From: an uncultured Candidatus Saccharibacteria bacterium
Lineage (GTDB): Bacteria; Patescibacteriota; Minisyncoccia; Phycocordibacterales; PALSA-1337
DNA: 64,000 nucleotides
Direction of reading: 5' to 3'
Assembly (NCBI GenBank): GCA_964358005.1
Contig: CAYHNH010000003.1
Coordinates: forward strand, 16,334-80,333
Notes under the pieces: generated by a model
The model's input: the letters and a program-made list of their open reading frames with translations, nothing else
What the model was told of the DNA's origin: nothing
Database searches by the model: none
Shown: positions 25,035 through 38,536 of the stretch, one piece after another
Layout: the number at the start of each line of letters is the position of its first letter
Position numbering within the stretch: position 1 is the stretch's first letter
Made by a program: the position numbers and the translations under genes

Positions 25035-25892
25035 ATGCATCCATTTAGAACAAAGGTCATCGTGGCACTGTCGCTCTCTCTGGCGTGTCTCTTTGCGGTT
25101 CTGCCGATATCTACAGCCAGCGCCCAGAGCTTTACGACGAATATCTCGGAGGTCACAGAGACCGGCTTCGACGTGAATTGGACGTTCGTGACTGGTGCAC
25201 AAAGGTACATGGTTTTTTGGAAAGCTAGATCCGAGGCGAGCTTCAGGCAGTCTAGCCCGATCTTAGCTTCGGCGGCGGCTACTCGCTATGCGCTCAGAAA
25301 CCTAACCCCAAGCACTCAATACGAGGTCTTTGTGGGAGTATCGATGGATGGCGCTTCATATGATGGGCAGACTGCGGTAAGCGCTCGCACACTGGGAGGG
25401 ACGGTTCCACCAACCCCTACGCCTGCTCCATCTCCCACCCCTGCGCCAACCCCTGCACCTACTCCAGCCCCCACACCGACGCCTGTCCCAGTACCAACAC
25501 TTGCACCAACACTTGCGCCGACACGTGCCCCAGGCACCGGTACTGGCAGTACTGGCACGCAAAACATGTTCTATATCCAGAACCCCCTCAATCCACAATT
25601 CAACAGCGTCGGGGGTCTAGTCAGCGGCTTTCTGGAGATATTCTCTTATCTGGTGATACTTTTCGCGGTTCTGATGCTCATCTGGGTAGGTCTGCAGTTC
25701 GTCCTGGCCCAGGGAAATGCCGAAAGGATGAAGGAGCTCAAGAAATGGCTACTGTGGATAGTGGTCGGCATAGCTCTCGTAATAGGTGCTAGAATTGTCG
25801 TTGCAGTAGTGATTAGTACCCTGGATGCGACTGGCGTAGTAAATCAAGGAGTCATCAGGGGCGCTCGTAATGCATTAGATGGCAGACCATAA
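25035..25892 (+). CDS. paralog B: signal peptide, fibronectin type III domain, Pro/Thr linker, C-terminal two-TM hairpin
   Basis: FN3 pattern (FDVNWTFVTGAQRYMVFWK...LTPSTQYEVFVGV); PTPTPAPSPTPAPTPAPTPAPTPTPVPVPT linker; TM1-AQGNAERMKELKK-TM2 hairpin. Confidence 0.55.
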   Translation: MHPFRTKVIVALSLSLACLFAVLPISTASAQSFTTNISEVTETGFDVNWTFVTGAQRYMVFWKARSEASFRQSSPILASAAATRYALRNLTPSTQYEVFVGVSMDGASYDGQTAVSARTLGGTVPPTPTPAPSPTPAPTPAPTPAPTPTPVPVPTLAPTLAPTRAPGTGTGSTGTQNMFYIQNPLNPQFNSVGGLVSGFLEIFSYLVILFAVLMLIWVGLQFVLAQGNAERMKELKKWLLWIVVGIALVIGARIVVAVVISTLDATGVVNQGVIRGARNALDGRP

Positions 25893-26286: not shown

Positions 26287-26739
26287 ATGAATAGCGCAGC
26301 AGTCACAAATGCCGGCACTCTGATAAGCAAGTTCGATTACCTTTTCCGTTCGGCTGTATGGCTCATGGTGTCCCTGGCGATCGTTTTCATCGTATGGCAC
26401 GCATTGCAGTTCATAAGGGAAGCGGGAGGCGACGAGAGGAAGAAGCACCAGAACGCTATATTGTGGGGCATCGTCGGTCTTGCGGTTATCCTCTCGATCT
26501 GGGGACTTGTCGCCATATTGAGCAATACATTTAATGTCGGCAATGTCGAAGGCCAGAATGAAGCGGCGAGGAATATAAACAAGCTCATCATACCCAGGAG
26601 CTCGTTCCAGAGTGGTGGTGGATCTAATCCTACGCCTGCCCCCGGACCCGGCACTGGCACCGGATCCAACCCACCTGGACCTGGTACGGGCACTGGATCT
26701 AACCCCCCTGGCCCGGGTACTGGCACCGGATCGAATTGA
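26287..26739 (+). CDS. paralog D of two-TM-hairpin family, C-terminal GPGTGTGSNPP x3 repeat tail
   Basis: TM1 AVWLMVSLAIVFIVWHALQFI, loop REAGGDERKKHQNA, TM2 ILWGIVGLAVILSIWGLVAIL; no obvious signal peptide. Confidence 0.5.
   Translation: MNSAAVTNAGTLISKFDYLFRSAVWLMVSLAIVFIVWHALQFIREAGGDERKKHQNAILWGIVGLAVILSIWGLVAILSNTFNVGNVEGQNEAARNINKLIIPRSSFQSGGGSNPTPAPGPGTGTGSNPPGPGTGTGSNPPGPGTGTGSN
26641..26736 (+). repeat. three tandem 33-nt units encoding the identical peptide GPGTGTGSNPP with synonymous nucleotide differences
   Basis: Units at 26641-26673, 26674-26706 and 26707-26736; the peptide is conserved while third codon positions vary. Confidence 0.6.
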
Positions 26740-27614: not shown

Positions 27615-28250
27615 TCAATCCTCGGGGTTCGACAGGGCGAGCTGCCACCAGTTCCTGGGGAGTGCCCCCATGAAGACGATATAACCGAGGCGTGAACGGG
27701 TGATTGAGTCACCTGCCACGATCCGGAAACCCGCCTTATGGGTATGGGCGACCTTGAACTTCTGTTCGTTGTCGGGGTTATAACTGACCGTCCGCTTCGG
27801 GAAGGTGTGGACGGCCTGGCCATCCACACAATACTGGAAGGGGACATTGTCCACGATGCCGACCTCGATCGAGTAACCTGCCGGCACGTCGATCTCCTCG
27901 ATCGTGCGACCTGTGCTGACCGTGAAGCTACCATACTTCAGGATCGGCGGCCGAGATGGCATGGCCGGAGCAGCATACGCCTGCGGCGTTTGCTGCTGAT
28001 AGGCCATGGCCGGCGGGGGTTGGAACTGTCCGCCCCCCTGCAGTGCCCGCTGGGCCTGCTGCGCCGCGGCCGCTTGCCGCTTCGCCGCCGCCTCTTCGCG
28101 CCGGGCCGCCTTGGCTTCCTCGACCTCCGCGTAGTTCACGCGAAAGCCATTGATGAGGACTCCCAGGAGGACCAGTGCCACGGCCCCGATCAGGAGCCAT
28201 TTCAACGTTTTCGGGTTCTGAGTTTTGTTGTTTTTTTTGTCTGCGCTCAT
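27615..28250 (-). CDS. hypothetical N-terminally membrane-anchored protein with Ala/Gln-rich linker
   Basis: TM helix WLLIGAVALVLLGVLI, then AKAARREEAAAKRQAAAAQQAQRA low-complexity stretch and a 110-aa C-terminal domain; G+C-rich. Its ATG overlaps the upstream gene stop (TAATG). Confidence 0.45.
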   Translation of the reverse strand: MSADKKNNKTQNPKTLKWLLIGAVALVLLGVLINGFRVNYAEVEEAKAARREEAAAKRQAAAAQQAQRALQGGGQFQPPPAMAYQQQTPQAYAAPAMPSRPPILKYGSFTVSTGRTIEEIDVPAGYSIEVGIVDNVPFQYCVDGQAVHTFPKRTVSYNPDNEQKFKVAHTHKAGFRIVAGDSITRSRLGYIVFMGALPRNWWQLALSNPED

Positions 28251-29326
28251 TAGTTGCCTTTCTTGTTGTTGGATTTTTTGCCCAGCGTCGATGTGTCGGT
28301 CAACGCTATGTTACTGATGCCGCCCCTGCCACCCTCGATGCGGGTGACGCGCTGATCGCGCATGAGGCGGGCCTTCTGGAACTTTTCCCACATCTGTTCC
28401 CAGGTGCCGATCCTGGAGGCCTTCATATACATCTCGACGATCTCCAGATTCGTCTTGGTCTCGGCCACTTCGGCCAGACGGTCGAACACTTCGCGAGCTT
28501 GCGCTCTCATAGCCTCCAGGATGTCATCCGGCAGATCGAATTTGGCTTGTATCTGCCTGACTTCGATGCCAAACGTCTCACCCTCGAAGATGTGCTCAAG
28601 TTCAGCCTCCATCGGGCCTGCCAGGAATTGCTTCGGGTCGGTGACTACTTGATGACTGCTCAGTCCTACCGCCCGCGCCTTGGTGTCCTGGACCACGATG
28701 CCGTCGAGCAGGGGCTTGATGCCATCCCACTTTCCGGCCTGGACGAAGTCGACCGCATCGCTGAGGTCAACCTCGAACCGTCCATCGATCTCTCCATCCA
28801 AGGGAACCTGATCCACCCCGCAGATTATCTGCATGTGAAATTCGAGATTCTTGTCCGTGATGTCGATCGGGTCGGTATCGATGTGGAATGGCCAGATTGG
28901 TAAGACCAAGGTTCTTCCTCCTACTGTGATACCGCCGTTCTCTTGATCAATGTAGGCATCCCAGCATTTGAGGAGGCCGGCAGTCCGTGGATCGGATGGG
29001 TGAACCTTTTCACCTTTCCACCAGATCAGGATACCTAGCACCAATGGCGGAAGCCCGAAGGGATTTCCGAGAAGGGACAGGGTGATTCCTGACCCGACGA
29101 GTAATATGCAGACCATGAGGATGGAGAGCGTAATGCCGTTCGCAAATGGCTTCAGGCTCGGCGCAGACGTCTCGTGACGCTTTTTGCGCTTCGCCTTCTG
29201 ACCATCGTCTGTCACTTGCGGCTTCTCGGCTTTCGCCAGGGAAGCACGCGAGTTGATCATGAGCATGATTATGGCAACGACAGCCATTATCAGTCCGATC
29301 CCTATCAGTATGTTACCGATGTTCAT
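28250..29326 (-). CDS. SPFH/band-7 (stomatin/flotillin-like) domain membrane protein
   Basis: Two N-terminal TM helices then SPFH-like core (GITVGGRTLVLPIWPF...EAMRAQAREVFDRLAEVAETKTNLEIVEMYMKA). Start uncertain between ATG 29326 and upstream TTG 29389. Confidence 0.45.
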   Translation of the reverse strand: MNIGNILIGIGLIMAVVAIIMLMINSRASLAKAEKPQVTDDGQKAKRKKRHETSAPSLKPFANGITLSILMVCILLVGSGITLSLLGNPFGLPPLVLGILIWWKGEKVHPSDPRTAGLLKCWDAYIDQENGGITVGGRTLVLPIWPFHIDTDPIDITDKNLEFHMQIICGVDQVPLDGEIDGRFEVDLSDAVDFVQAGKWDGIKPLLDGIVVQDTKARAVGLSSHQVVTDPKQFLAGPMEAELEHIFEGETFGIEVRQIQAKFDLPDDILEAMRAQAREVFDRLAEVAETKTNLEIVEMYMKASRIGTWEQMWEKFQKARLMRDQRVTRIEGGRGGISNIALTDTSTLGKKSNNKKGN

Positions 29327-29604
29327 TTGGACGCTAGTTTCGAGCCGTCCCGGAATGGGAGGCTCATTGGTTGAGGATTGAGTTTTCAACGTGCTTTCGT
29401 ACGTTGGTATTGACTGGTGTTAATAGTAGCACTTTTGGGTATGTTTGTCAAGTAATAAAATGGCTCAAAATATGGGTTATTGGGCGTAGGCAGCTCAAAT
29501 TTGGGACAAAAAAGCGCCCCCGATGCAAGCATCAGGGGCGTTGTGTTCTTCGCTATGGATCCCTGCGGACCCTGGAGGAAGAACGTCACGAGTAGAGACC
29601 TTCG

Positions 29605-31347
29605 TCAGTAGCGGAAATGACCGCTGTAGACGACGGGATCGACTCGGGTGTGGCCTCGGAAGGCCGGGGGGAGCGGCAGCGGGTTCACGACCGGCACCAC
29701 ATACTGCATCCGTTCAACCGGTGCGCAGTAGGCGGGATTGTAGCTTTGGCCGTAATCGGCGTAGGCCACCTGCCCGTAGTTGGTCTGCTGCTGGGGCGCT
29801 CGGACGAGCGTCCCATTCTGCTCCGGCGGCGAGCGGTAAAGCTCTTCGCCGGGGTAGGGGTGCGGAACGATGGCACTTACAGGCTTCGCCCCCAGCTGCG
29901 GCCCTTGCGGAGCGGCCGACTCGGGTTGAACCCGCGGTCCTTCATCCGGCATCTCGCGACGCGAGCGACCGGACTGGACTGGGGCGGGCTGGAAGCCCTG
30001 ACCCTGGTGCGGCTGACCCTGGACGACCTGGGGCGCCGCGGGCTGCACGTAGATCACCTGCGGGGCAGGCGCTGCCGCTGCCGGTTGAGCCGGCTGCGAC
30101 GGAACGGGCGCCCAGGGTTGGTGGATCGCATGCATGCTGTAGGATTGCCAGGCCATGAAGGCCAGGCAGCCCAGGATCAGCACGATGACGAACACCAGCG
30201 CCCAGAGCCACGGGGACCCGGACTTCGACGACTTGGTCGTGCGCTCCGAGGTGGTCGTTGCCGACCTCCGCGAACCGCCGCGACGCTTGTCATCGTCGTC
30301 ATCCGAACTGCCACCACCGGAGCCACCACCACCGAACTTCGCGAGAAGCTCGGAGTGGCGCTTGTTCGCATCGGAATCCGAGCGAGCAAAACCGTCGTTG
30401 ACGGTGCCGGCGAGCTGCGTGACCTGGTTCTTCAGCGCTTCCAGCTCCGTGCGGAGCTTGGTGGCCTCATCCTTGGTCGCCGCGTTGCCGATCTTCGTGC
30501 GAAGCTCGGCCATCTCGCGCTCGATCGCGATGATACGGGCGTCGTTGTTGCCAGCAGGCTGGTTGCCGCCGCCGGTGTTGTCACCAGGCTTCGGCTTCTC
30601 AACGTGTTGCAACGCCAGGACGTGCTCGGGGAGGAGTTCGAACACACAGGTGCCCGGCTCGCTCTTGTTGCCGTCCTTGTCGAACGACACGACCGAGACC
30701 ACGAGCTCGTCGCCCGCGGGGTTCAGCTTCGGCTTGTTGCCGAGCAGGACCTCGAGATGACCGTGCGTCACCCCGTCCTTGTCGATCGCCTTGTCGGCCG
30801 CGTTGGCCGTCATGGGCCCGAAGCTGTCACCGGCCTTGTTCTTGGCCGAAATGACGTGCTTCACGACGGACGGTTCTTCCGTCGTGATCCGGAGGAAGAG
30901 CCCACCACGGGTCTCTTCCTTCCGCTTGTTCGTGCGCTTGACGTCCGGCTTCTTCACGGCTTTCTTGCCGGCGCTCGCGCCACTGCCGCCACCACTTGTG
31001 CCGGACGCATTGGCCATGACTTCCGTCACGGTCATCGCGTCGAGGGTGGTTTGGCCAGTGGCCATTTCGGCGGCGGGCGTGCTGTTGGCGTCCGTCACCT
31101 TGATCTCGACATCGATCGGCTCTCCGACCACGATGTCCGTGATCGGGTTCTTGGTTTGGAGTTGGAGTTTGGTGATGTCGAACTGCAGCTTGTCCGACAC
31201 CATGTCACTGCGAGCGATCGTTCCAAGCCAGAGCAGCGTGCCCTTGGCGTTGGTGACCGTAGCGGTGACGTGGGTGGTATCTGCAGAGAGGCTTTCCAAG
31301 TAGACTTGGGCACCCTCGATTTTGGTAACATTGGGCTTCGTTGGCAT
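29605..31347 (-). CDS. large bitopic membrane protein: about 390-aa cytoplasmic region with coiled coil, single TM, about 180-aa Pro/Gln-rich C-terminal tail
   Basis: Coiled-coil segment IAIEREMAELRTKIGNAATKDEATKLRTELEALKNQVTQLAG; TM WLWALVFVIVLILGCLAFMAW; tail PQVIYVQPAAPQVVQGQPHQGQGFQPAPVQ. Most G+C-rich gene in the window; the antisense ORF is judged a shadow. Confidence 0.5.
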   Translation of the reverse strand: MPTKPNVTKIEGAQVYLESLSADTTHVTATVTNAKGTLLWLGTIARSDMVSDKLQFDITKLQLQTKNPITDIVVGEPIDVEIKVTDANSTPAAEMATGQTTLDAMTVTEVMANASGTSGGGSGASAGKKAVKKPDVKRTNKRKEETRGGLFLRITTEEPSVVKHVISAKNKAGDSFGPMTANAADKAIDKDGVTHGHLEVLLGNKPKLNPAGDELVVSVVSFDKDGNKSEPGTCVFELLPEHVLALQHVEKPKPGDNTGGGNQPAGNNDARIIAIEREMAELRTKIGNAATKDEATKLRTELEALKNQVTQLAGTVNDGFARSDSDANKRHSELLAKFGGGGSGGGSSDDDDDKRRGGSRRSATTTSERTTKSSKSGSPWLWALVFVIVLILGCLAFMAWQSYSMHAIHQPWAPVPSQPAQPAAAAPAPQVIYVQPAAPQVVQGQPHQGQGFQPAPVQSGRSRREMPDEGPRVQPESAAPQGPQLGAKPVSAIVPHPYPGEELYRSPPEQNGTLVRAPQQQTNYGQVAYADYGQSYNPAYCAPVERMQYVVPVVNPLPLPPAFRGHTRVDPVVYSGHFRY

Positions 31348-31696: not shown

Positions 31697-33181
31697 TTAT
31701 CTGAGGTTACGATCGCACCAGTTCCTGGCAGGAACCGGATGGAACGCTGACTGGAGCAGGCCGAGCGCGCCTGTCGTCGGATCCCTTCCGACCAGTTCTT
31801 CCCAGGGGATGTAGGTGGGGTGGCGGTCGATCGTGTTACTGCCATTCAGGAACATTTCACCTTTCTTGAAGTAGTACCACAGACCGTCGTCACCATCGCC
31901 TTCCTGACCGCACTGCTCGAACGAGGGAAGCAGTTTCCGTCCGAGCTTCTTCAGCTCGAATATACGGATCATGCGCACGGGATACTCGAGGATGCCGGCA
32001 TAGCGATAGGTGGCCTTCGAACCAGTCACGCACAGCTTGAGCTCCTCGTCAGAGAAGATCTGCACGTTACCGGTCTTCTTGGCCCGGACCACCGTGACGC
32101 CTGGCATCTTCTTGTCGTCGGGGATGTGCTTCTGAAGCAGATTCCGACAATGCCTGGCCGCCTTGTGCGCATTCCGGCTGTCCGTCGTCGTGGCGCTCAG
32201 CAGGATGATCCGCTCCTCGCCATCGAGAAGCGCCCGAACGAAGATGGGCGCCTCCTTGCTCTGCCTGTCGACCTCGGACCAGAAGTCCGCTTGGTCGATA
32301 TGCATCGCCACGAAGGCATACTCGAGCAGGTCTGCGATGTCCTGTTCCGTGGTCGCCACATCCTTGGCGCTGGTCCGCGCCATCGCTTCGACTCCGAAGG
32401 CCAGTTCCGTGACGTAAGTTCGGTCTGCGCCTTCTTTGTCGGGAACGAATGTCGCTTTGCGTTGCATGCTGCCATGCATGCGCTGGAACAGGCTGCTGCG
32501 GATGCGCGGTTCCATCGGGCCGTTGGCCTCCTCCCAATCGCCGAGCCACTTGCGGAAGTAGTCGACGAGGTTCTTCTCTCCGGGGGGACGCTCCAGCTTG
32601 ACCGAAGCCATGATCTGGCTCTCGCGAGTGATGATCGCAATGATCAGCGGCTCAATGAAGCTAAAGATCCTCTTGGCGGCGTCGACATTTCGACGATTGT
32701 CCACCTTGATGAGCTCAGCTAGCATCGTCGACCGACAACCACTCTCGGTGTCGCACCGCAGGACTTCTGCCAGAAGCCGCCGCAGCGCCGCCACGTCCTC
32801 CTTCTTAAGGTAGTTCGCGACGAGCCGAGTCGAACACCATCCGGGCATGCGGTCGCCACCTTCCTTCAGGTGCTCGTTGAAGCGACACTTGTCGCCAGTT
32901 CCGAACGGCAGGATGCCGTCCGCGTCGAACTGTTCCTCTGTGCCGGTCATGTCGCCGAAGACGATGTTCCGGTCCCGCAAGGCTTTGCGGATACCGGGGA
33001 ACACGTCTTCGCCGAACAGTGCCGCCACTATCGCTCCAGCGACTTCGTCAAGGTGTGGCGATGGATGCATCGCCAGTTTCTTGACTGGGATCACTGGTAC
33101 CGGGTATGCGAACCCGGTGAACGTCGGGTTTATGAACCCTGCTGACGCTATCATGGGAGTCCTTTGGTTGATGAGGCCCAT
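31697..33181 (-). CDS. hypothetical protein (494 aa), G+C-rich
   Basis: Long ORF with protein-like composition; possible metal-binding His-rich N-terminal motif (MHPSPHLDEV); no family recognised. The plus-strand overlapping ORFs are shadows. Confidence 0.45.
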   Translation of the reverse strand: MGLINQRTPMIASAGFINPTFTGFAYPVPVIPVKKLAMHPSPHLDEVAGAIVAALFGEDVFPGIRKALRDRNIVFGDMTGTEEQFDADGILPFGTGDKCRFNEHLKEGGDRMPGWCSTRLVANYLKKEDVAALRRLLAEVLRCDTESGCRSTMLAELIKVDNRRNVDAAKRIFSFIEPLIIAIITRESQIMASVKLERPPGEKNLVDYFRKWLGDWEEANGPMEPRIRSSLFQRMHGSMQRKATFVPDKEGADRTYVTELAFGVEAMARTSAKDVATTEQDIADLLEYAFVAMHIDQADFWSEVDRQSKEAPIFVRALLDGEERIILLSATTTDSRNAHKAARHCRNLLQKHIPDDKKMPGVTVVRAKKTGNVQIFSDEELKLCVTGSKATYRYAGILEYPVRMIRIFELKKLGRKLLPSFEQCGQEGDGDDGLWYYFKKGEMFLNGSNTIDRHPTYIPWEELVGRDPTTGALGLLQSAFHPVPARNWCDRNLR

Positions 33182-33311
33182 GCCTCGTTTTTGGTTTTGG
33201 GAAATAGCGCTGTTCTCTCAGATATGTTGTAAAGAACGGAGAAACCAGCTGAGGCGCATTATATCACATAATTAAGCTATAAGTCAATATACTCTGTAAA
33301 TGTCAATTTTG

Positions 33312-33393
33312 TGGGCACGGGGAGACTCGAACTCCCAAGTCTTGCGACACATGGTCCTAAGCCATGCGCGTATACCAATTCCGCCACGTGCCC
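33312..33393 (-). tRNA. tRNA-Leu (anticodon TAG), long variable arm
   Basis: Acceptor GGGCACG/CGTGCCC, anticodon stem-loop CATGG-CTTAGGA-CCATG, long variable arm, T-loop TTCGAGT; 82 nt. Confidence 0.85.
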
Positions 33394-33428
33394 ATGCCTC
33401 GATAATAATACACGAAACCTTTGCCTTT

Positions 33429-33502
33429 GTGCGCCCAGTAGGGATCGAACCTACGACCTTGTCCTTAAGAGGGACCTGCTCTACCAGCTGAGCTATGGGC
33501 GC
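33429..33502 (-). tRNA. tRNA-Lys (anticodon CTT)
   Basis: Acceptor GCGCCCA/TGGGCGC, D-arm GCTC-AGCTGGTA-GAGC, anticodon loop CTCTTAA (one 27-43 mismatch), T-loop TTCGATC; 74 nt. Confidence 0.8.
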
Positions 33503-33958: not shown

Positions 33959-34858
33959 ATGGCAAATCGACATCTCTCACGTTCAGTCGTACTGCAATCC
34001 CTCTTTGAATGGGATTTCTGTGGAGGGCACTCCGATCTGGAGCCGCTTATCGCCCGCAATATCAAGGAATTCGCACCAGGACTCACCGATCAGTCATTTG
34101 TAGATGATCTCATAAAAGGCGTCATCGCCAAGAAGAAAGAGCTCGATACTATCATCGAGAAGGCCGCTCCTGATTGGCCGATAGACAAGATATCGCCGGT
34201 AGACAGGAATGTCCTGCGCTTGGGGCTGTATGAGCTCCTGTTCGCTGACCGCGGTGAGGTGCCAGCCAAGGTCGCTATAAACGAGGCCATCGAGCTGGCC
34301 AAGACATTCGGGGGAGATACGAGCGGAAGATTCGTGAACGGCGTGCTCGGCGCGGTCTATAAGGAACTAGGCGAGCCGGGCAAAGAGGCGGCGCCGATGA
34401 AGAAAAAGAAGATACCAGATGTGCCGTTCGAGAGCATGCTCATCCAGCATCTCGGCGGGGCGGTGATATACGCGAAAAGCGGCAAAGACATATATCTCGC
34501 GTTCGTCCATGACATATTTGGGCATTGGACATTATCTAAGGGCAAGATAGCGGAGGGCATAGATCCGACCGAGGGCACAGTAGCGAAGGTCATGGAGGAA
34601 GTCGGTCTCGAGGTCAGGATAAAAGCCGACCTTGGCTCCAATGAATACGTGGCCAACGACCCGGAGCTCGGCAAGATCAGGAAGCAGGTGCACTATTATC
34701 TGGCCGAGTCGCCGTTCGTCGATCTCAAGCTGGCCAAGAAGCCCGGTCTAGATGACGCCAAATGGTTCAAGCTCTCCGACATCCTTGAGCTCAATTTTTA
34801 TAATGACATCCTGCCTATCGTCACTAAGGCGGTGACTATGCTTAGCGAACAAAAATGA
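33959..34858 (+). CDS. nusB: NusB transcription antitermination factor fused to a C-terminal Nudix-like domain
   Basis: Residues 1-138 match NusB (RHLSRSVVLQSLFEWDF...VDRNVLRLGLYELLF...AINEAIELAKTFGGD..GRFVNGVLG); the C-terminal about 160 aa carry a Nudix-fold signature (WTLSKGKIAEGIDPTEGTVAKVMEEVGLEV) with a degenerate Nudix box. Confidence 0.7.
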   Translation: MANRHLSRSVVLQSLFEWDFCGGHSDLEPLIARNIKEFAPGLTDQSFVDDLIKGVIAKKKELDTIIEKAAPDWPIDKISPVDRNVLRLGLYELLFADRGEVPAKVAINEAIELAKTFGGDTSGRFVNGVLGAVYKELGEPGKEAAPMKKKKIPDVPFESMLIQHLGGAVIYAKSGKDIYLAFVHDIFGHWTLSKGKIAEGIDPTEGTVAKVMEEVGLEVRIKADLGSNEYVANDPELGKIRKQVHYYLAESPFVDLKLAKKPGLDDAKWFKLSDILELNFYNDILPIVTKAVTMLSEQK

Positions 34859-35556
34859 CGACCATAAATTTCGAATCTCTGGCGGAGCATATCGGCGTGG
34901 CTTTTTCTGATATATCCATATTGCGGACGGCCTGCACGCACCGGTCGTATCTGAATGAGAACCGCGGCTCGGGCATGGAGCATAATGAGCGCCTTGAATT
35001 CCTGGGCGATGCGGTCCTCGAGCTGGTGGTGACCAGCTTTTTATACAGAAAATATCCGAAGAGGCAGGAAGGGGATCTGACGGCCTATCGGTCGGCTATC
35101 GTGAATACCGTGAGCCTGACGAAGGTCGCGGAGAGGATCGGCTTGGGCGACTACATGCTTTTGTCCCGTGGCGAATCCAAGGATACCGGCCGCGCGAGGT
35201 CGGTCATAATAGCGAACGCTGTCGAAGCCACGATCGGCGCTATCTATATAGACCAGGGCTATGACGCGGCGGGGCAGTTCGTAGCGGATCATATCCTGAA
35301 TGTCATAGATATAGAGAACATAGTCGAGAATAAATCTTGGATGGACGCCAAGAGCCGATTCCAGGAGATGGCGCAGGAGAAGACTGGTGTCACGCCGACT
35401 TACAGAACGCTGAAGGAGGCGGGACCGGATCATGACAAACAGTTCACTCTGGCGGTATTTCTAGGCGATGTGCAGGTTGCCATAGGCAGTGGGCCGTCTA
35501 AGCAGGAGGCGGAACAGCGCGCGGCTGAGAAGGGGCTTGAGGTGAAGGGGTGGTAA
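34855..35556 (+). CDS. rnc: ribonuclease III
   Basis: ERLEFLGDAVLELVV catalytic signature plus C-terminal dsRBD; ATGA overlap with the nusB stop. Confidence 0.9.
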   Translation: MTTINFESLAEHIGVAFSDISILRTACTHRSYLNENRGSGMEHNERLEFLGDAVLELVVTSFLYRKYPKRQEGDLTAYRSAIVNTVSLTKVAERIGLGDYMLLSRGESKDTGRARSVIIANAVEATIGAIYIDQGYDAAGQFVADHILNVIDIENIVENKSWMDAKSRFQEMAQEKTGVTPTYRTLKEAGPDHDKQFTLAVFLGDVQVAIGSGPSKQEAEQRAAEKGLEVKGW

Positions 35557-35595: not shown

Positions 35596-35940
35596 TTATT
35601 CCATATAACCCTCGTAATCGCCGTTGTCGTATTTAGCCGGCTCAAACTTTATCTTCACACCTAGCGCTTTTGTCAGCTTTATCAACTGATAGAGAGTCGG
35701 GTTAGTGCGTCCTGATTCGATGCGCGCGATGTTTGACTGTGGTATGCCACAATGCTTCGATAGGTCATTCTGGCTCCATCCTTTTTCTTCGCGGTGACGC
35801 GCGAGATCTTTAAAAATCTCGAACATAAGGCTAAGGTAGCCGAATGATCCGCCGTCCTTAGAATTTTTAAGGTCGGTGAAGATGAATTCGGTGTATTTTT
35901 TAGGTGGTGGAACAAATGGTACGTATGACATCGCGGGCAT
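35596..35940 (-). CDS. XRE-family helix-turn-helix transcriptional regulator
   Basis: C-terminal HTH_XRE segment GWSQNDLSKHCGIPQSNIARIESGRTNPTLYQLIKLTKALG; start tentatively at ATG 35940. Confidence 0.55.
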   Translation of the reverse strand: MPAMSYVPFVPPPKKYTEFIFTDLKNSKDGGSFGYLSLMFEIFKDLARHREEKGWSQNDLSKHCGIPQSNIARIESGRTNPTLYQLIKLTKALGVKIKFEPAKYDNGDYEGYME

Positions 35941-36045
35941 TTTATCAGTTCTGTTGAGATTGTGCATCAAAAAATAACTGGGAGCAAAAAATGCAGATAG
36001 GTGGAACAAGGGCAGGCGGGGGGTAAGGGTGTTCCAGTACAGGCC

Positions 36046-36113
36046 CTATATCATCTTTGATATAGGTTTTTCGCGTAAAACGACGAGAATTCCCTATATC
36101 ATATATGATATAG
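36046..36113. promoter_or_regulatory. two operator-like 8-4-8 inverted repeats CTATATCA-N4-TGATATAG spaced 48 bp apart
   Basis: ctatatcaTCTTtgatatag at 36046-36065 and ctatatcaTATAtgatatag at 36094-36113, in the divergent region between the XRE regulator (-) and the smc-like gene (+). Confidence 0.5.
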
Positions 36114-36232
36114 CCCACGGGAATGAGAACGTGTGCCCCCTGCCAGAAGCGCACACAACCAAACGCGGTGCTCCACATATTCACGCCCAATTTTCGACTT
36201 TTTACGCTACAATTAGGCGACATCCCAATAGA

Positions 36233-38536
36233 ATGTATCTAAAGTCCCTGGAATTATCGGGTTTCAAATCATTCGCCAAAAAGGCGAACCTTTCGTTTAC
36301 CTCGCCGATCACCGGCATCGTGGGACCAAACGGCTCTGGAAAGTCCAACATAGCCGAGGCCTTCAAGTTCGTCCTCGGCGAGCAGTCGATCAAATCCCTG
36401 CGCGGCAAGCGCGGCGAGGACATGATCTGGAACGGCGGCGGAGGCGACAGTGGACTGGCTAGTGGGAGCGGCGGTAGTGGTGGCGGCAGTGGCGGCGGAT
36501 CGCGAGCCAACCGCGCCAACATAAGGCTGACATTCGATAATTCACGCAGGATATTCCCGACCATAGATTTCGATGAAGTTACTCTCGAGCGCGTGGTGAA
36601 CCGCGATAACTCCAACGAATATCTCCTGAATGGCACGCAAGTTCGCCTGAAAGACATCATCGAGCTTTTGGCTGGTGCGCATATCGGTGCGACGGGCCAC
36701 CACATCATTTCCCAGGGCGAGGCTGACCGCATACTTACAGCCTCCATACGCGAGCGTCGCGAGATGATCGAGGATGCGCTCGGTCTCAAGATCTACCAGT
36801 GGAAGAAGCTCGAGAGCACCCGCAAACTGGAGCGGACCGAAGAGAATATGAAACAGGTTGAGTCGCTCCGCCGCGAGATCGCGCCTCACATAAAGTTTCT
36901 GAAGAAGCAGGTTGAAAAGATAGAGAAGTCGCGCGAGATGCGAGTAGAGCTGGTAAATCTGTATAAGGAGTATTTCGCCATAGAGGAAGCATATCTCGGA
37001 TCCGAAAAGAAGCGCCTGACAGACGAGCTCTCCGGTCCGAAAAAAGAACTGGGCGAACTCGAACGCGAGCTAGAGCGCGCCAAAGCCGTGCTCACAGCGG
37101 CCAAAGGCAAAGACGAGAAAAGCCATGAGGTCATAGAGATAGAGAGCCGTTTGGCCGCCATACGCGGAGAGAAGGATGACATCATGCGCGAGCTCGGTCG
37201 CATCGAGGGTGAGATCAACGCTGACCGCCGCGCCGTAGAGAAGGAGAAAGACAAGCTCAAGAAGGATGAATTCAAGACGGTCTACCTGAAGGACCTGGAG
37301 GACGTGGTGAAGACCGTTGAATCACTGAAGAGCATCGGCGACATCCTAGAGCTCCTGCGGACGTTCATAAAGAAGCACAGGGTAGCCAGCGATTCTAGCC
37401 TGATCGGTGAAGCCGAGAGGGAGATTGAAGGCCTGCTCAAGGATAAATCAAAGCATGACGACAAGCTCAGGGCATTGACGAGCTCCGAGCACAAGTTGCG
37501 CGCCGACTACGAGGCGCTCAAGAAGAACATAGAGAAGGAAAAGGACACCAACCGGGACGCCGAGAAGGATGTCTTCAGGATCATCGCCCGTCAGAATGAG
37601 ATACGCGGGGTCATCGCCGGGCTGACTTCAGCCATGAGTGTCGTCCAACATGACGAAGACAATTTCAAGAGAGAACTGGGAGAGGCCGGGAGCATAGCCG
37701 GCAGGGAGGCTGTCGAGTACGGCGGAGTTGAGGGGCTGGCGCTCGGAGCGGCTCTCATGAATGAGTCCAGTCGCCTTGCCCAGGAGGATCGCCGCAAGAA
37801 AATAGAGAGGATCAAGATCCGCCTCGAGGATTCCGGCCTTGGCGGCAGTGCCGAGGTGCTCAAGGAGTATAAGGAGACCGAGGAGCGCGATGCATTCTTG
37901 GCACGCGAGCTCGAGGATCTGGCTAAAGCCAAGGGCGAGCTCCACAAGCTCATAGCCGAGCTCGATGTCCGCATAGATGTAGAGTTCAAACAGGGCATCC
38001 TGAAGATCAACAATGAGTTCCACAAGTTCTTTACGCTGATGTTCGGCGGCGGTAAGGCGGAGCTTACGGTGGTCAGGGAGGTCAGACGCAAGAAGAAGTC
38101 AGACACCCTCGATCTGGCCGAAGTGCTTTCTGACTCCGAGATCGAGAATCCGGCAGACAAGGACGACCAGGAGGAAGGTCCGGAGGGTCTGGAGGTGAAC
38201 GTCAGTTTGCCGCGCAAGAAGGTGAAAGGTCTCATGATGCTCTCTGGCGGCGAGCGCGCGCTGACCTCGATCGCATTGCTGTTTGCGATCTCTCAGGTCA
38301 ATCCGCCGCCCTTCATCATTCTGGACGAGACTGACGCCGCGCTTGATGAGGCCAACTCACGCAAATATGGAGATATGATCGAAAGCCTTTCCAGGAATTC
38401 ACAGCTGATACTGATAACTCATAACCGCGAGACGATGTCACGCGCCGGAGTGCTTTACGGTGTAACAATGGGGGGTGATGGTGCGTCAAAGCTATTGTCC
38501 ATCGCATTCGAGGAGGCAGTAAAAGTGGCAAAGTAG
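36233..38536 (+). CDS. smc: SMC-family chromosome-segregation ATPase, shortened (about 767 aa) with Gly-rich insertion
   Basis: N-terminal Walker A (MYLKSLELSGFKSF...IVGPNGSGKSNI); long coiled-coil region; C-terminal signature and Walker B (LSGGERALTSIALLFAISQVNPPPFIILDETDAALD); GGGGDSGLASGSGGSGGGSGGGS insertion near the N-terminus. Confidence 0.7.
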   Translation: MYLKSLELSGFKSFAKKANLSFTSPITGIVGPNGSGKSNIAEAFKFVLGEQSIKSLRGKRGEDMIWNGGGGDSGLASGSGGSGGGSGGGSRANRANIRLTFDNSRRIFPTIDFDEVTLERVVNRDNSNEYLLNGTQVRLKDIIELLAGAHIGATGHHIISQGEADRILTASIRERREMIEDALGLKIYQWKKLESTRKLERTEENMKQVESLRREIAPHIKFLKKQVEKIEKSREMRVELVNLYKEYFAIEEAYLGSEKKRLTDELSGPKKELGELERELERAKAVLTAAKGKDEKSHEVIEIESRLAAIRGEKDDIMRELGRIEGEINADRRAVEKEKDKLKKDEFKTVYLKDLEDVVKTVESLKSIGDILELLRTFIKKHRVASDSSLIGEAEREIEGLLKDKSKHDDKLRALTSSEHKLRADYEALKKNIEKEKDTNRDAEKDVFRIIARQNEIRGVIAGLTSAMSVVQHDEDNFKRELGEAGSIAGREAVEYGGVEGLALGAALMNESSRLAQEDRRKKIERIKIRLEDSGLGGSAEVLKEYKETEERDAFLARELEDLAKAKGELHKLIAELDVRIDVEFKQGILKINNEFHKFFTLMFGGGKAELTVVREVRRKKKSDTLDLAEVLSDSEIENPADKDDQEEGPEGLEVNVSLPRKKVKGLMMLSGGERALTSIALLFAISQVNPPPFIILDETDAALDEANSRKYGDMIESLSRNSQLILITHNRETMSRAGVLYGVTMGGDGASKLLSIAFEEAVKVAK

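Follow-up and report, generated by a model that had tools for sequence, protein, structure and literature searches.

We describe here a protein in which NusB is fused to a Nudix domain, encoded between rpmF and rnc on a 64-kb stretch of DNA (hereafter the window) from a small bacterium of groundwater that belongs to the Parcubacteria/Paceibacteria. The NusB-Nudix fusion is real, widespread and uncharacterised; it is old, it is common across Parcubacteria/Paceibacteria and it is found between these two genes. Within the Nudix domain, the ligand pocket is shown by family-wide alignments to be under stronger selection than the catalytic centre. The reading that we favour, with moderate confidence, is that binding of an adenosine-5'-polyphosphate is the selected common property of the family and that hydrolysis is impaired in the lineage of the present protein.

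NusB is a core factor of ribosomal RNA transcription, normally a single-domain protein, and acts as the partner of S10/NusE on the boxA RNA of nascent pre-rRNA. Both NusB and Nudix domains are well known, and there are precedents for Nudix domains as non-catalytic sensors (TRPM2, NrtR). No description of a NusB-Nudix fusion was found in the literature on NusB in combination with Nudix or Patescibacteria and on Nudix in combination with antitermination or Parcubacteria, and a review of the Nudix clan does not mention NusB. The database records say only 'NusB', and the additional domain is thus overlooked at present.

Architecture, neighbourhood and spread of the fusion

The fusion gene (33959..34858, + strand) is one uninterrupted open reading frame (ORF) of 299 amino acids plus stop. 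A NusB domain of seven helices (aa 1-138; 33959..34372, +) is followed by a linker (aa 139-159; 34373..34435, +) with a conserved G-E-P-G-K hinge, a KKKK run and a disordered stretch, and by a Nudix domain of the NUDT2/Ap4A-hydrolase type that starts at about residue 160 (aa 160-299; 34436..34855, +). The preliminary description had called the first 138 residues an unmistakable NusB, and this part is indeed a genuine NusB of full length. It matches Pfam NusB (PF01029) over aa 7-135 (E = 1.3e-33) and reaches 125.8 bits with the NCBIfam equivalog model for nusB (TIGR01951; cut-off 88.35; model positions 2-130 of 131), the all-helical NusB fold is present, and the 138 residues can be aligned over their whole length with solved NusB proteins. 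The latter comprise 139-156 residues and their alignments stop at query residue ~131-136, indicating that the Nudix part was truly added at the C-terminus; unlike the solved proteins, the fusion protein continues with the GEPGK hinge and, after a flexible linker, with a Nudix domain of 140 aa. A NusB-like domain also occurs in the 16S rRNA methyltransferase RsmB/Sun/Fmu, but there the C-terminal domain is a SAM methyltransferase. Membership of RsmB/Sun was rejected, with RsmB models reaching 16-65 bits against cut-offs of 269-540 (in one pairing, 65 bits against 319) and matching the NusB part only. No second nusB and no second Nudix gene were found in the 64-kb window.

The fusion gene is preceded by rpmF for ribosomal protein L32 (33671..33898, +; Pfam Ribosomal_L32p, E = 1.2e-15), a 75-aa gene in the gene calls of L001, and followed by rnc for RNase III (34855..35556, +; Pfam Ribonucleas_3_3, 3.5e-39, plus dsrm). 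As the preliminary description had pointed out, the gene overlaps with rnc: the TGA stop of nusB-nudix and the ATG start of rnc share 4 nt (ATGA, 34855..34858). No terminator-like sites were found on the + strand between rpmF, nusB and rnc. Downstream of rnc comes an XRE-type HTH gene in the opposite orientation, and then smc, clpB and alr. This HTH gene (35596..36009, -) separates rnc and smc in the present genome; in the divergent relatives L086 and L087, smc comes directly after rnc and is followed by a SET-domain gene. The mechanical ORF of smc (36029..38536, +) opens at GTG and spans 835 aa, while the gene call on the source contig has 767 aa with a start equivalent to 36233; the upstream 68 codons of the mechanical ORF are probably not translated.

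Immediately upstream of rpmF, tRNA-Leu(tag) and tRNA-Lys(ctt) are located on the minus strand (33311..33502). These tRNAs are closely followed, on their downstream side, by a strong match to a sigma-70-like promoter (11/12; 33287..33258, -), which is oriented away from them, towards the ORF at 31697..33181. The latter belongs to three consecutive long minus-strand ORFs just upstream of the cluster (28250..29389, 29605..31347 and 31697..33181; 378, 579 and about 493 aa, respectively), none of which has a Pfam match at E <= 1e-3. Those at 29605..31347 and 31697..33181 (-) are gene calls on the source contig too, again with no Pfam matches. Two small proteins match the T4SS pilin / TrbC-VirB2 model (25035..25892, +, E = 7e-8; 26287..26739, +, E = 1.4e-8), the first of which has an additional weak fibronectin type III match. 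Neither an rRNA operon nor a boxA was found in the window, where Rfam matches are confined to tRNAs.

The fusion is by no means limited to this genome. A search of a protein database of 5.8 billion clusters gave at least 8000 matches, the best 120 of which are all about 300 aa long and 77-87% identical to the query, each with both Pfam domains. Where these 120 proteins are named, the name is 'NusB' and the source Paceibacterota, Parcubacteria or Patescibacteria. When the C-terminal 155 aa alone were searched against 1.84 billion 50%-identity representatives, 541 matches were obtained at E <= 1e-3; among the best 150 of these, NusB and Nudix occur together in 55, with identities down to ~30%, and the others are fragments or small stand-alone Nudix proteins. 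Genuine stand-alone Nudix relatives, with identities of ~37% or lower, have canonical boxes. One such protein, P0163 (L084, 4001..4453; 150 aa, canonical box, 37% identity), is flanked by an integrase, a DNA methylase and a phage Rep-O-like gene, a mobile-element-like neighbourhood suggesting that this Nudix subfamily also travels on mobile elements.

In a genome scan with a 10-sequence domain alignment and one genome per GTDB species, at least 592 species-representative genomes were found to encode the domain. Of the loci found, the best 80 were examined more closely: a single ORF encodes NusB and Nudix and rnc lies directly 3' in every case (80/80 each), and rpmF lies directly 5' in 75, the other five starting at contig edges. 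The order rpmF, nusB-nudix, rnc, smc is kept in two very divergent members (loci L086 and L087). One of them, P0256, is only 34% identical to the query overall, and a homologue search starting from it gave labels of Paceibacterota, Pacebacteria or Patescibacteria only. In the other, P0190 (L087, 3785..4672), the Nudix part is beyond Pfam detection and the key box positions read S/A-E-T-D-E; the domain and the order rpmF, nusB, rnc, smc are still retained. The identical protein is recorded from Hainich groundwater metagenome contigs. Many fusion-carrying TPA assemblies (loci L003-L082) bear the title 'uncultured Candidatus Saccharibacteria bacterium', yet the proteins they encode group with proteins from Taylor-, Nomura- and Kaiserbacteria, and the titles therefore look generic or wrong.

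The recurrence of the single ORF in 80 of 80 independent species genomes and the kept gene order in divergent members exclude a frameshift or a missed stop, for which the preliminary description had advised a check near 34.37 kb along with a survey of lengths in related genomes. An assembly or sequencing artefact joining nusB to a separate Nudix gene can be dismissed with near certainty, the more so as the 120 best protein matches have the same length and domains and as P0129, the one apparent stand-alone close relative, is a contig-edge fragment with rnc after it.

Type of the Nudix domain and state of its catalytic box

Pfam NUDIX (PF00293) covers aa 169-282 with 31.8 bits against a gathering score of 21.1 (E = 1.6e-7) and the alpha/beta/alpha Nudix fold is present, in line with the earlier proposal of a Nudix-like domain in one ORF with NusB. 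The domain sequence alone has its best match in CT771 (1.5e-5). A profile of 36 diverse fused domains, compared with the PDB, retrieved the Aquifex Ap4A hydrolase aq_158 (E = 1.2e-17), CT771 (1.1e-14), Ndx1 (1.8e-13), the C. elegans Ap4A hydrolase (1.4e-10), human NUDT2 (4.5e-10), the Dcp2 catalytic domain (1e-9) and BdRppH (5e-4). The nearest relatives are ApnA hydrolases of the NUDT2/aq_158/CT771/Ndx1 type, followed by Dcp2. The RppH model (NCBIfam PRK00714) reaches only 15.0 bits against a cut-off of 118. Taken together, the profile ranking and this low score indicate a dinucleoside-polyphosphate/cap-type Nudix domain, the likeness to RppH being not specific. The RppH-type link drawn in the preliminary description thus needs to be corrected, as ApnA hydrolases and Dcp2 are nearer.

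Among known systems, the animal/archaeal-type Ap4A (ApnA) hydrolases (human NUDT2, the C. elegans enzyme, aq_158, Chlamydia CT771 and Thermus Ndx1) provide the best sequence and fold matches, with a Foldseek TM of 0.86 to the Aquifex Ap4A hydrolase 3i7u. The fused domain shares with the NUDT2 type the HWTxxKG loop, the P1-phosphate Lys and Tyr, the adenine-stacking aromatics and an adenine-binding acid, whereas in its box the positions of the E, R and Mg-binding E are taken by I201, A209 and K210, and the domain is fused to NusB. RppH and Dcp2 are Nudix enzymes acting on RNA 5' ends or caps, and Dcp2 is fairly close to the fused domain. The Nudix-related regulators NrtR, AraR and NadQ are promoter-acting proteins with a DNA-binding winged-helix domain, whereas the partner in the fusion is an RNA-binding antitermination factor. 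An NrtR-like architecture was accordingly rejected: no winged helix follows the Nudix domain, the protein ends with it and the partner domain is NusB. The Nudix domain is acidic, with a family median pI of 5.26, which speaks against an extended RNA body as the bound partner and would suit a small ligand or a cap.

The catalytic region consists of a HWTxxK phosphate-binding loop, delineated by hhalign to NUDT2 (H189-W190-T191-L192-S193-K194; 34523..34540, +), and a degenerate Nudix box (aa 195-217, GKIAEG-I-DPTEGTV-AK-VM-EE-V-G-L; 34541..34609, +). The motif singled out in the preliminary description (WTLSKGKIAEG...AKVMEEVGLEV) is present, and the partial replacement of its catalytic residues was confirmed by alignment of the box. 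Compared to the consensus GX5EX7REUXEEXGU, the box is incomplete (G195 x5 I201 x7 A209 K210 V M E213 E214 V G216 L217): three specified residues are replaced (E by I201, R by A209 and the E of 'RE' by K210), and E213, E214, G195 and G216 are kept. For the mapping onto human NUDT2 we used what we take to be its sequence. The numbering agrees with the residues discussed in PMC4734340 (Tyr82, Lys89, Phe128, Glu130) and with the E58A entry, PDB 4ijx, in which that mutant of human NUDT2 was crystallised with diphosphate. By hhalign, I201 corresponds to E49, A209 to R57, K210 to E58, E213 to E61 and E214 to E62, and the Mg-binding Glu of 'RE' (NUDT2 E58) is consequently a lysine in the present protein.

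The overall arrangement of the protein was modelled in two AlphaFold2 (AF2) runs, one with 120 close homologues and one with 150 more diverse homologues, which gave a mean pLDDT of 83 and 87 and a pTM of 0.51 and 0.50, respectively. Residues 140-153 have pLDDT values below 50 and are predicted to be disordered. A fixed packing of the two domains was rejected on the basis of the low pTM of both runs and the disordered linker, and no rigid arrangement can be claimed; the models rather suggest two independently folded domains joined by a flexible tether. The hinge residues G138, E139, P140 and K142 (G138-E139-P140-x-K142) are at least 90% conserved and family-specific, and the linker varies from 9 to 41 residues across the fused family, with ~20 in this protein.

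Selection on the ligand pocket and the catalytic box

Across the 80 species loci, the five key box positions show the canonical state EREEE in 34, ERAEE in nine, ERKEE in eight, a query-like state (V/I/gap)-(A/N/F/S/D)-K-E-E in 18 and other states in 11. In a non-redundant set of 53 fused proteins with less than 60% identity, 12 have a fully canonical box and 17 keep the 'RE' Glu, which is replaced by K in 12, V in 11, I in six and A in five. The degenerate box of the preliminary description thus stands for this protein, not as a trait of the family as a whole. In neighbour-joining trees the canonical box is scattered and non-canonical states arise many times, pointing to multiple losses. Since the stand-alone relatives are canonical as well, the ancestor of the fusion was presumably an active enzyme, and the fusion members with a canonical box are probably active enzymes today.

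The pocket shows a different picture. In the hhalign mapping, H189-W190-T191-L192-S193-K194 correspond to H37-W38-T39-P40-P41-K42 of NUDT2, and Y230, K242, Y281 and D283 to Y82, K89, F128 and E130, for which roles in binding the P1-phosphate and the adenine have been described (PMC4734340). The NUDT2-type P1-phosphate ligands (His, Lys, Tyr, Lys) and the adenine-stacking aromatics are all present in the fusion protein. Among the 53 non-redundant members, W190 is kept in all 53, K194 in 51, Y281 in 49, Y230 in 48 (with F in three more), D283 in 44 and K242 in 41 (with R in six more); H189, equivalent to NUDT2 H37, is variable (Y in 22, K in 16, H in seven). When the 137 domain sites are ranked by column entropy, W190 comes first, K194 third, Y281 ninth and Y230 tenth, compared to rank 75 for K210. 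The decay of the box is not accompanied by a relaxed constraint on the domain as a whole: pairwise identity in Nudix divided by that in NusB gives 0.97 for the group devoid of the Arg and 0.94 for the RxEE group, close to the 1.01 of canonical members. In the query's own clade, the two domains have the same mean column conservation (0.86).

With a pocket that is nearly invariant and box residues that have been lost repeatedly, binding rather than hydrolysis is favoured for this lineage, as the preliminary description had suggested. The ligand itself is inferred only from homology of the pocket residues; candidates would be Ap4A or other ApnA, nucleotides similar to ATP, or RNA 5' ends with an Np4A-type cap. 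Hydrolysis would then be an add-on that some lineages kept and others lost repeatedly. Given the replacements I201, A209 and K210, the domain of the present genome would bind its ligand and hydrolyse it poorly or not at all.

A comparable history is known from the NUDT9-H domain of TRPM2, likewise a fused Nudix domain that some lineages have in a canonical, active form and others in a vestigial form that still binds the ligand, with a substitution at the same 'RE' Glu (PMC6461439). It differs in belonging to the ADP-ribose Nudix subfamily and in being part of a eukaryotic ion channel. The vertebrate versions of NUDT9-H are inactive binders, and the double mutation E1443I/F1444L, which includes this Glu, leaves a kcat of ~1% with a KM within twofold (PMC6461439). 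A NUDT9-H box with the Arg changed to Ala (AEFGEE) is still active (PMC6461439).

An active hydrolase with a non-canonical box, delivered by NusB to pre-rRNA for RNA 5'-end/Np4A decapping or for ApnA hydrolysis, appears unlikely to us, but it accounts for several observations. The EE pair, which holds the inferred catalytic base of the C. elegans Ap4A hydrolase and of E. coli RppH (PMC5526541), is at least 97% conserved in 78 close relatives, and residual or altered activity is therefore possible; K210 or the acidic E229, D265 and D266 might compensate for the lost residues. The canonical box in 34 of the 80 close species implies that hydrolysis is selected somewhere in the family, the activity of Ap4A hydrolases such as E. 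coli RppH extends to the removal of Np4 caps (PMC13010140), and RsmB/Fmu sets a precedent for a NusB-like domain delivering an enzyme to rRNA. Weighing against activity in the present protein are the three missing box residues, the Mg-binding Glu among them; in NUDT9-H, a mutation that includes this Glu lowered kcat ~100-fold (PMC6461439). Moreover, in the wider family the EE pair itself is replaced in several lineages (EK, QK, KE, SE) that nevertheless retain the domain.

The dispensability of the catalytic box in most lineages, combined with the continued constraint on the whole domain, would also suit a pure protein-protein or RNP scaffold that binds no small ligand and is part of a Paceibacteria-specific rRNA antitermination complex. 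Such a role would be comparable to that of SuhB, an enzyme-fold protein of the E. coli rrnTAC, or of the Nudix-fold protein mL46 in mitoribosomes. We regard a scaffold as improbable, since it leaves unexplained why the most conserved residues are those with which NUDT2-type enzymes hold the first phosphate and the adenine, and since AF2 predicts no fixed contact with NusB.

Possible role beside the rRNA antitermination complex

If binding of an adenosine-5'-polyphosphate is the selected property, the known function of NusB suggests where it would be exerted. NusB, together with S10 on the boxA of nascent pre-rRNA, would carry the tethered domain to this site, where the domain may act as a nucleotide or 5'-end reader beside the rRNA antitermination complex and the co-expressed RNase III, the latter being presumably translationally coupled to nusB-nudix. 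In lineages with a canonical box, the module would also remove the ligand at the antitermination complex. Pre-rRNA antitermination and RNase III processing would thereby plausibly be linked to the ligand, much as the preliminary description had hinted at a link between antitermination and RNA 5'-end/nucleotide sensing. A 5' cap as the target is conceivable, because Np4 caps are added when transcription starts and Np4A hydrolases, the Nudix enzyme RppH among them, take them off again (PMC13010140).

A more far-reaching proposal, to which we attach a low probability, is that the fusion protein is a co-transcriptional reader of Np4A-type caps or of the free ApnA alarmone (and an eraser in canonical lineages) within a Paceibacteria rRNA antitermination complex, so that the 5'-end or alarmone status would directly gate pre-rRNA antitermination and RNase III processing. 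If true, RNA capping or Ap4A signalling in bacteria would be connected to the function of Nus factors in a way not known before.

The family constitutes a natural series from canonical to decayed boxes, by which binding and hydrolysis can be separated experimentally. In summary, a predicted nucleotide-binding Nudix domain has been retained on NusB throughout a class of bacteria whose genomes are very small, in a gene that always adjoins that for RNase III, which suggests that rRNA synthesis or processing in these bacteria is tied to an adenine-nucleotide or cap-like signal.
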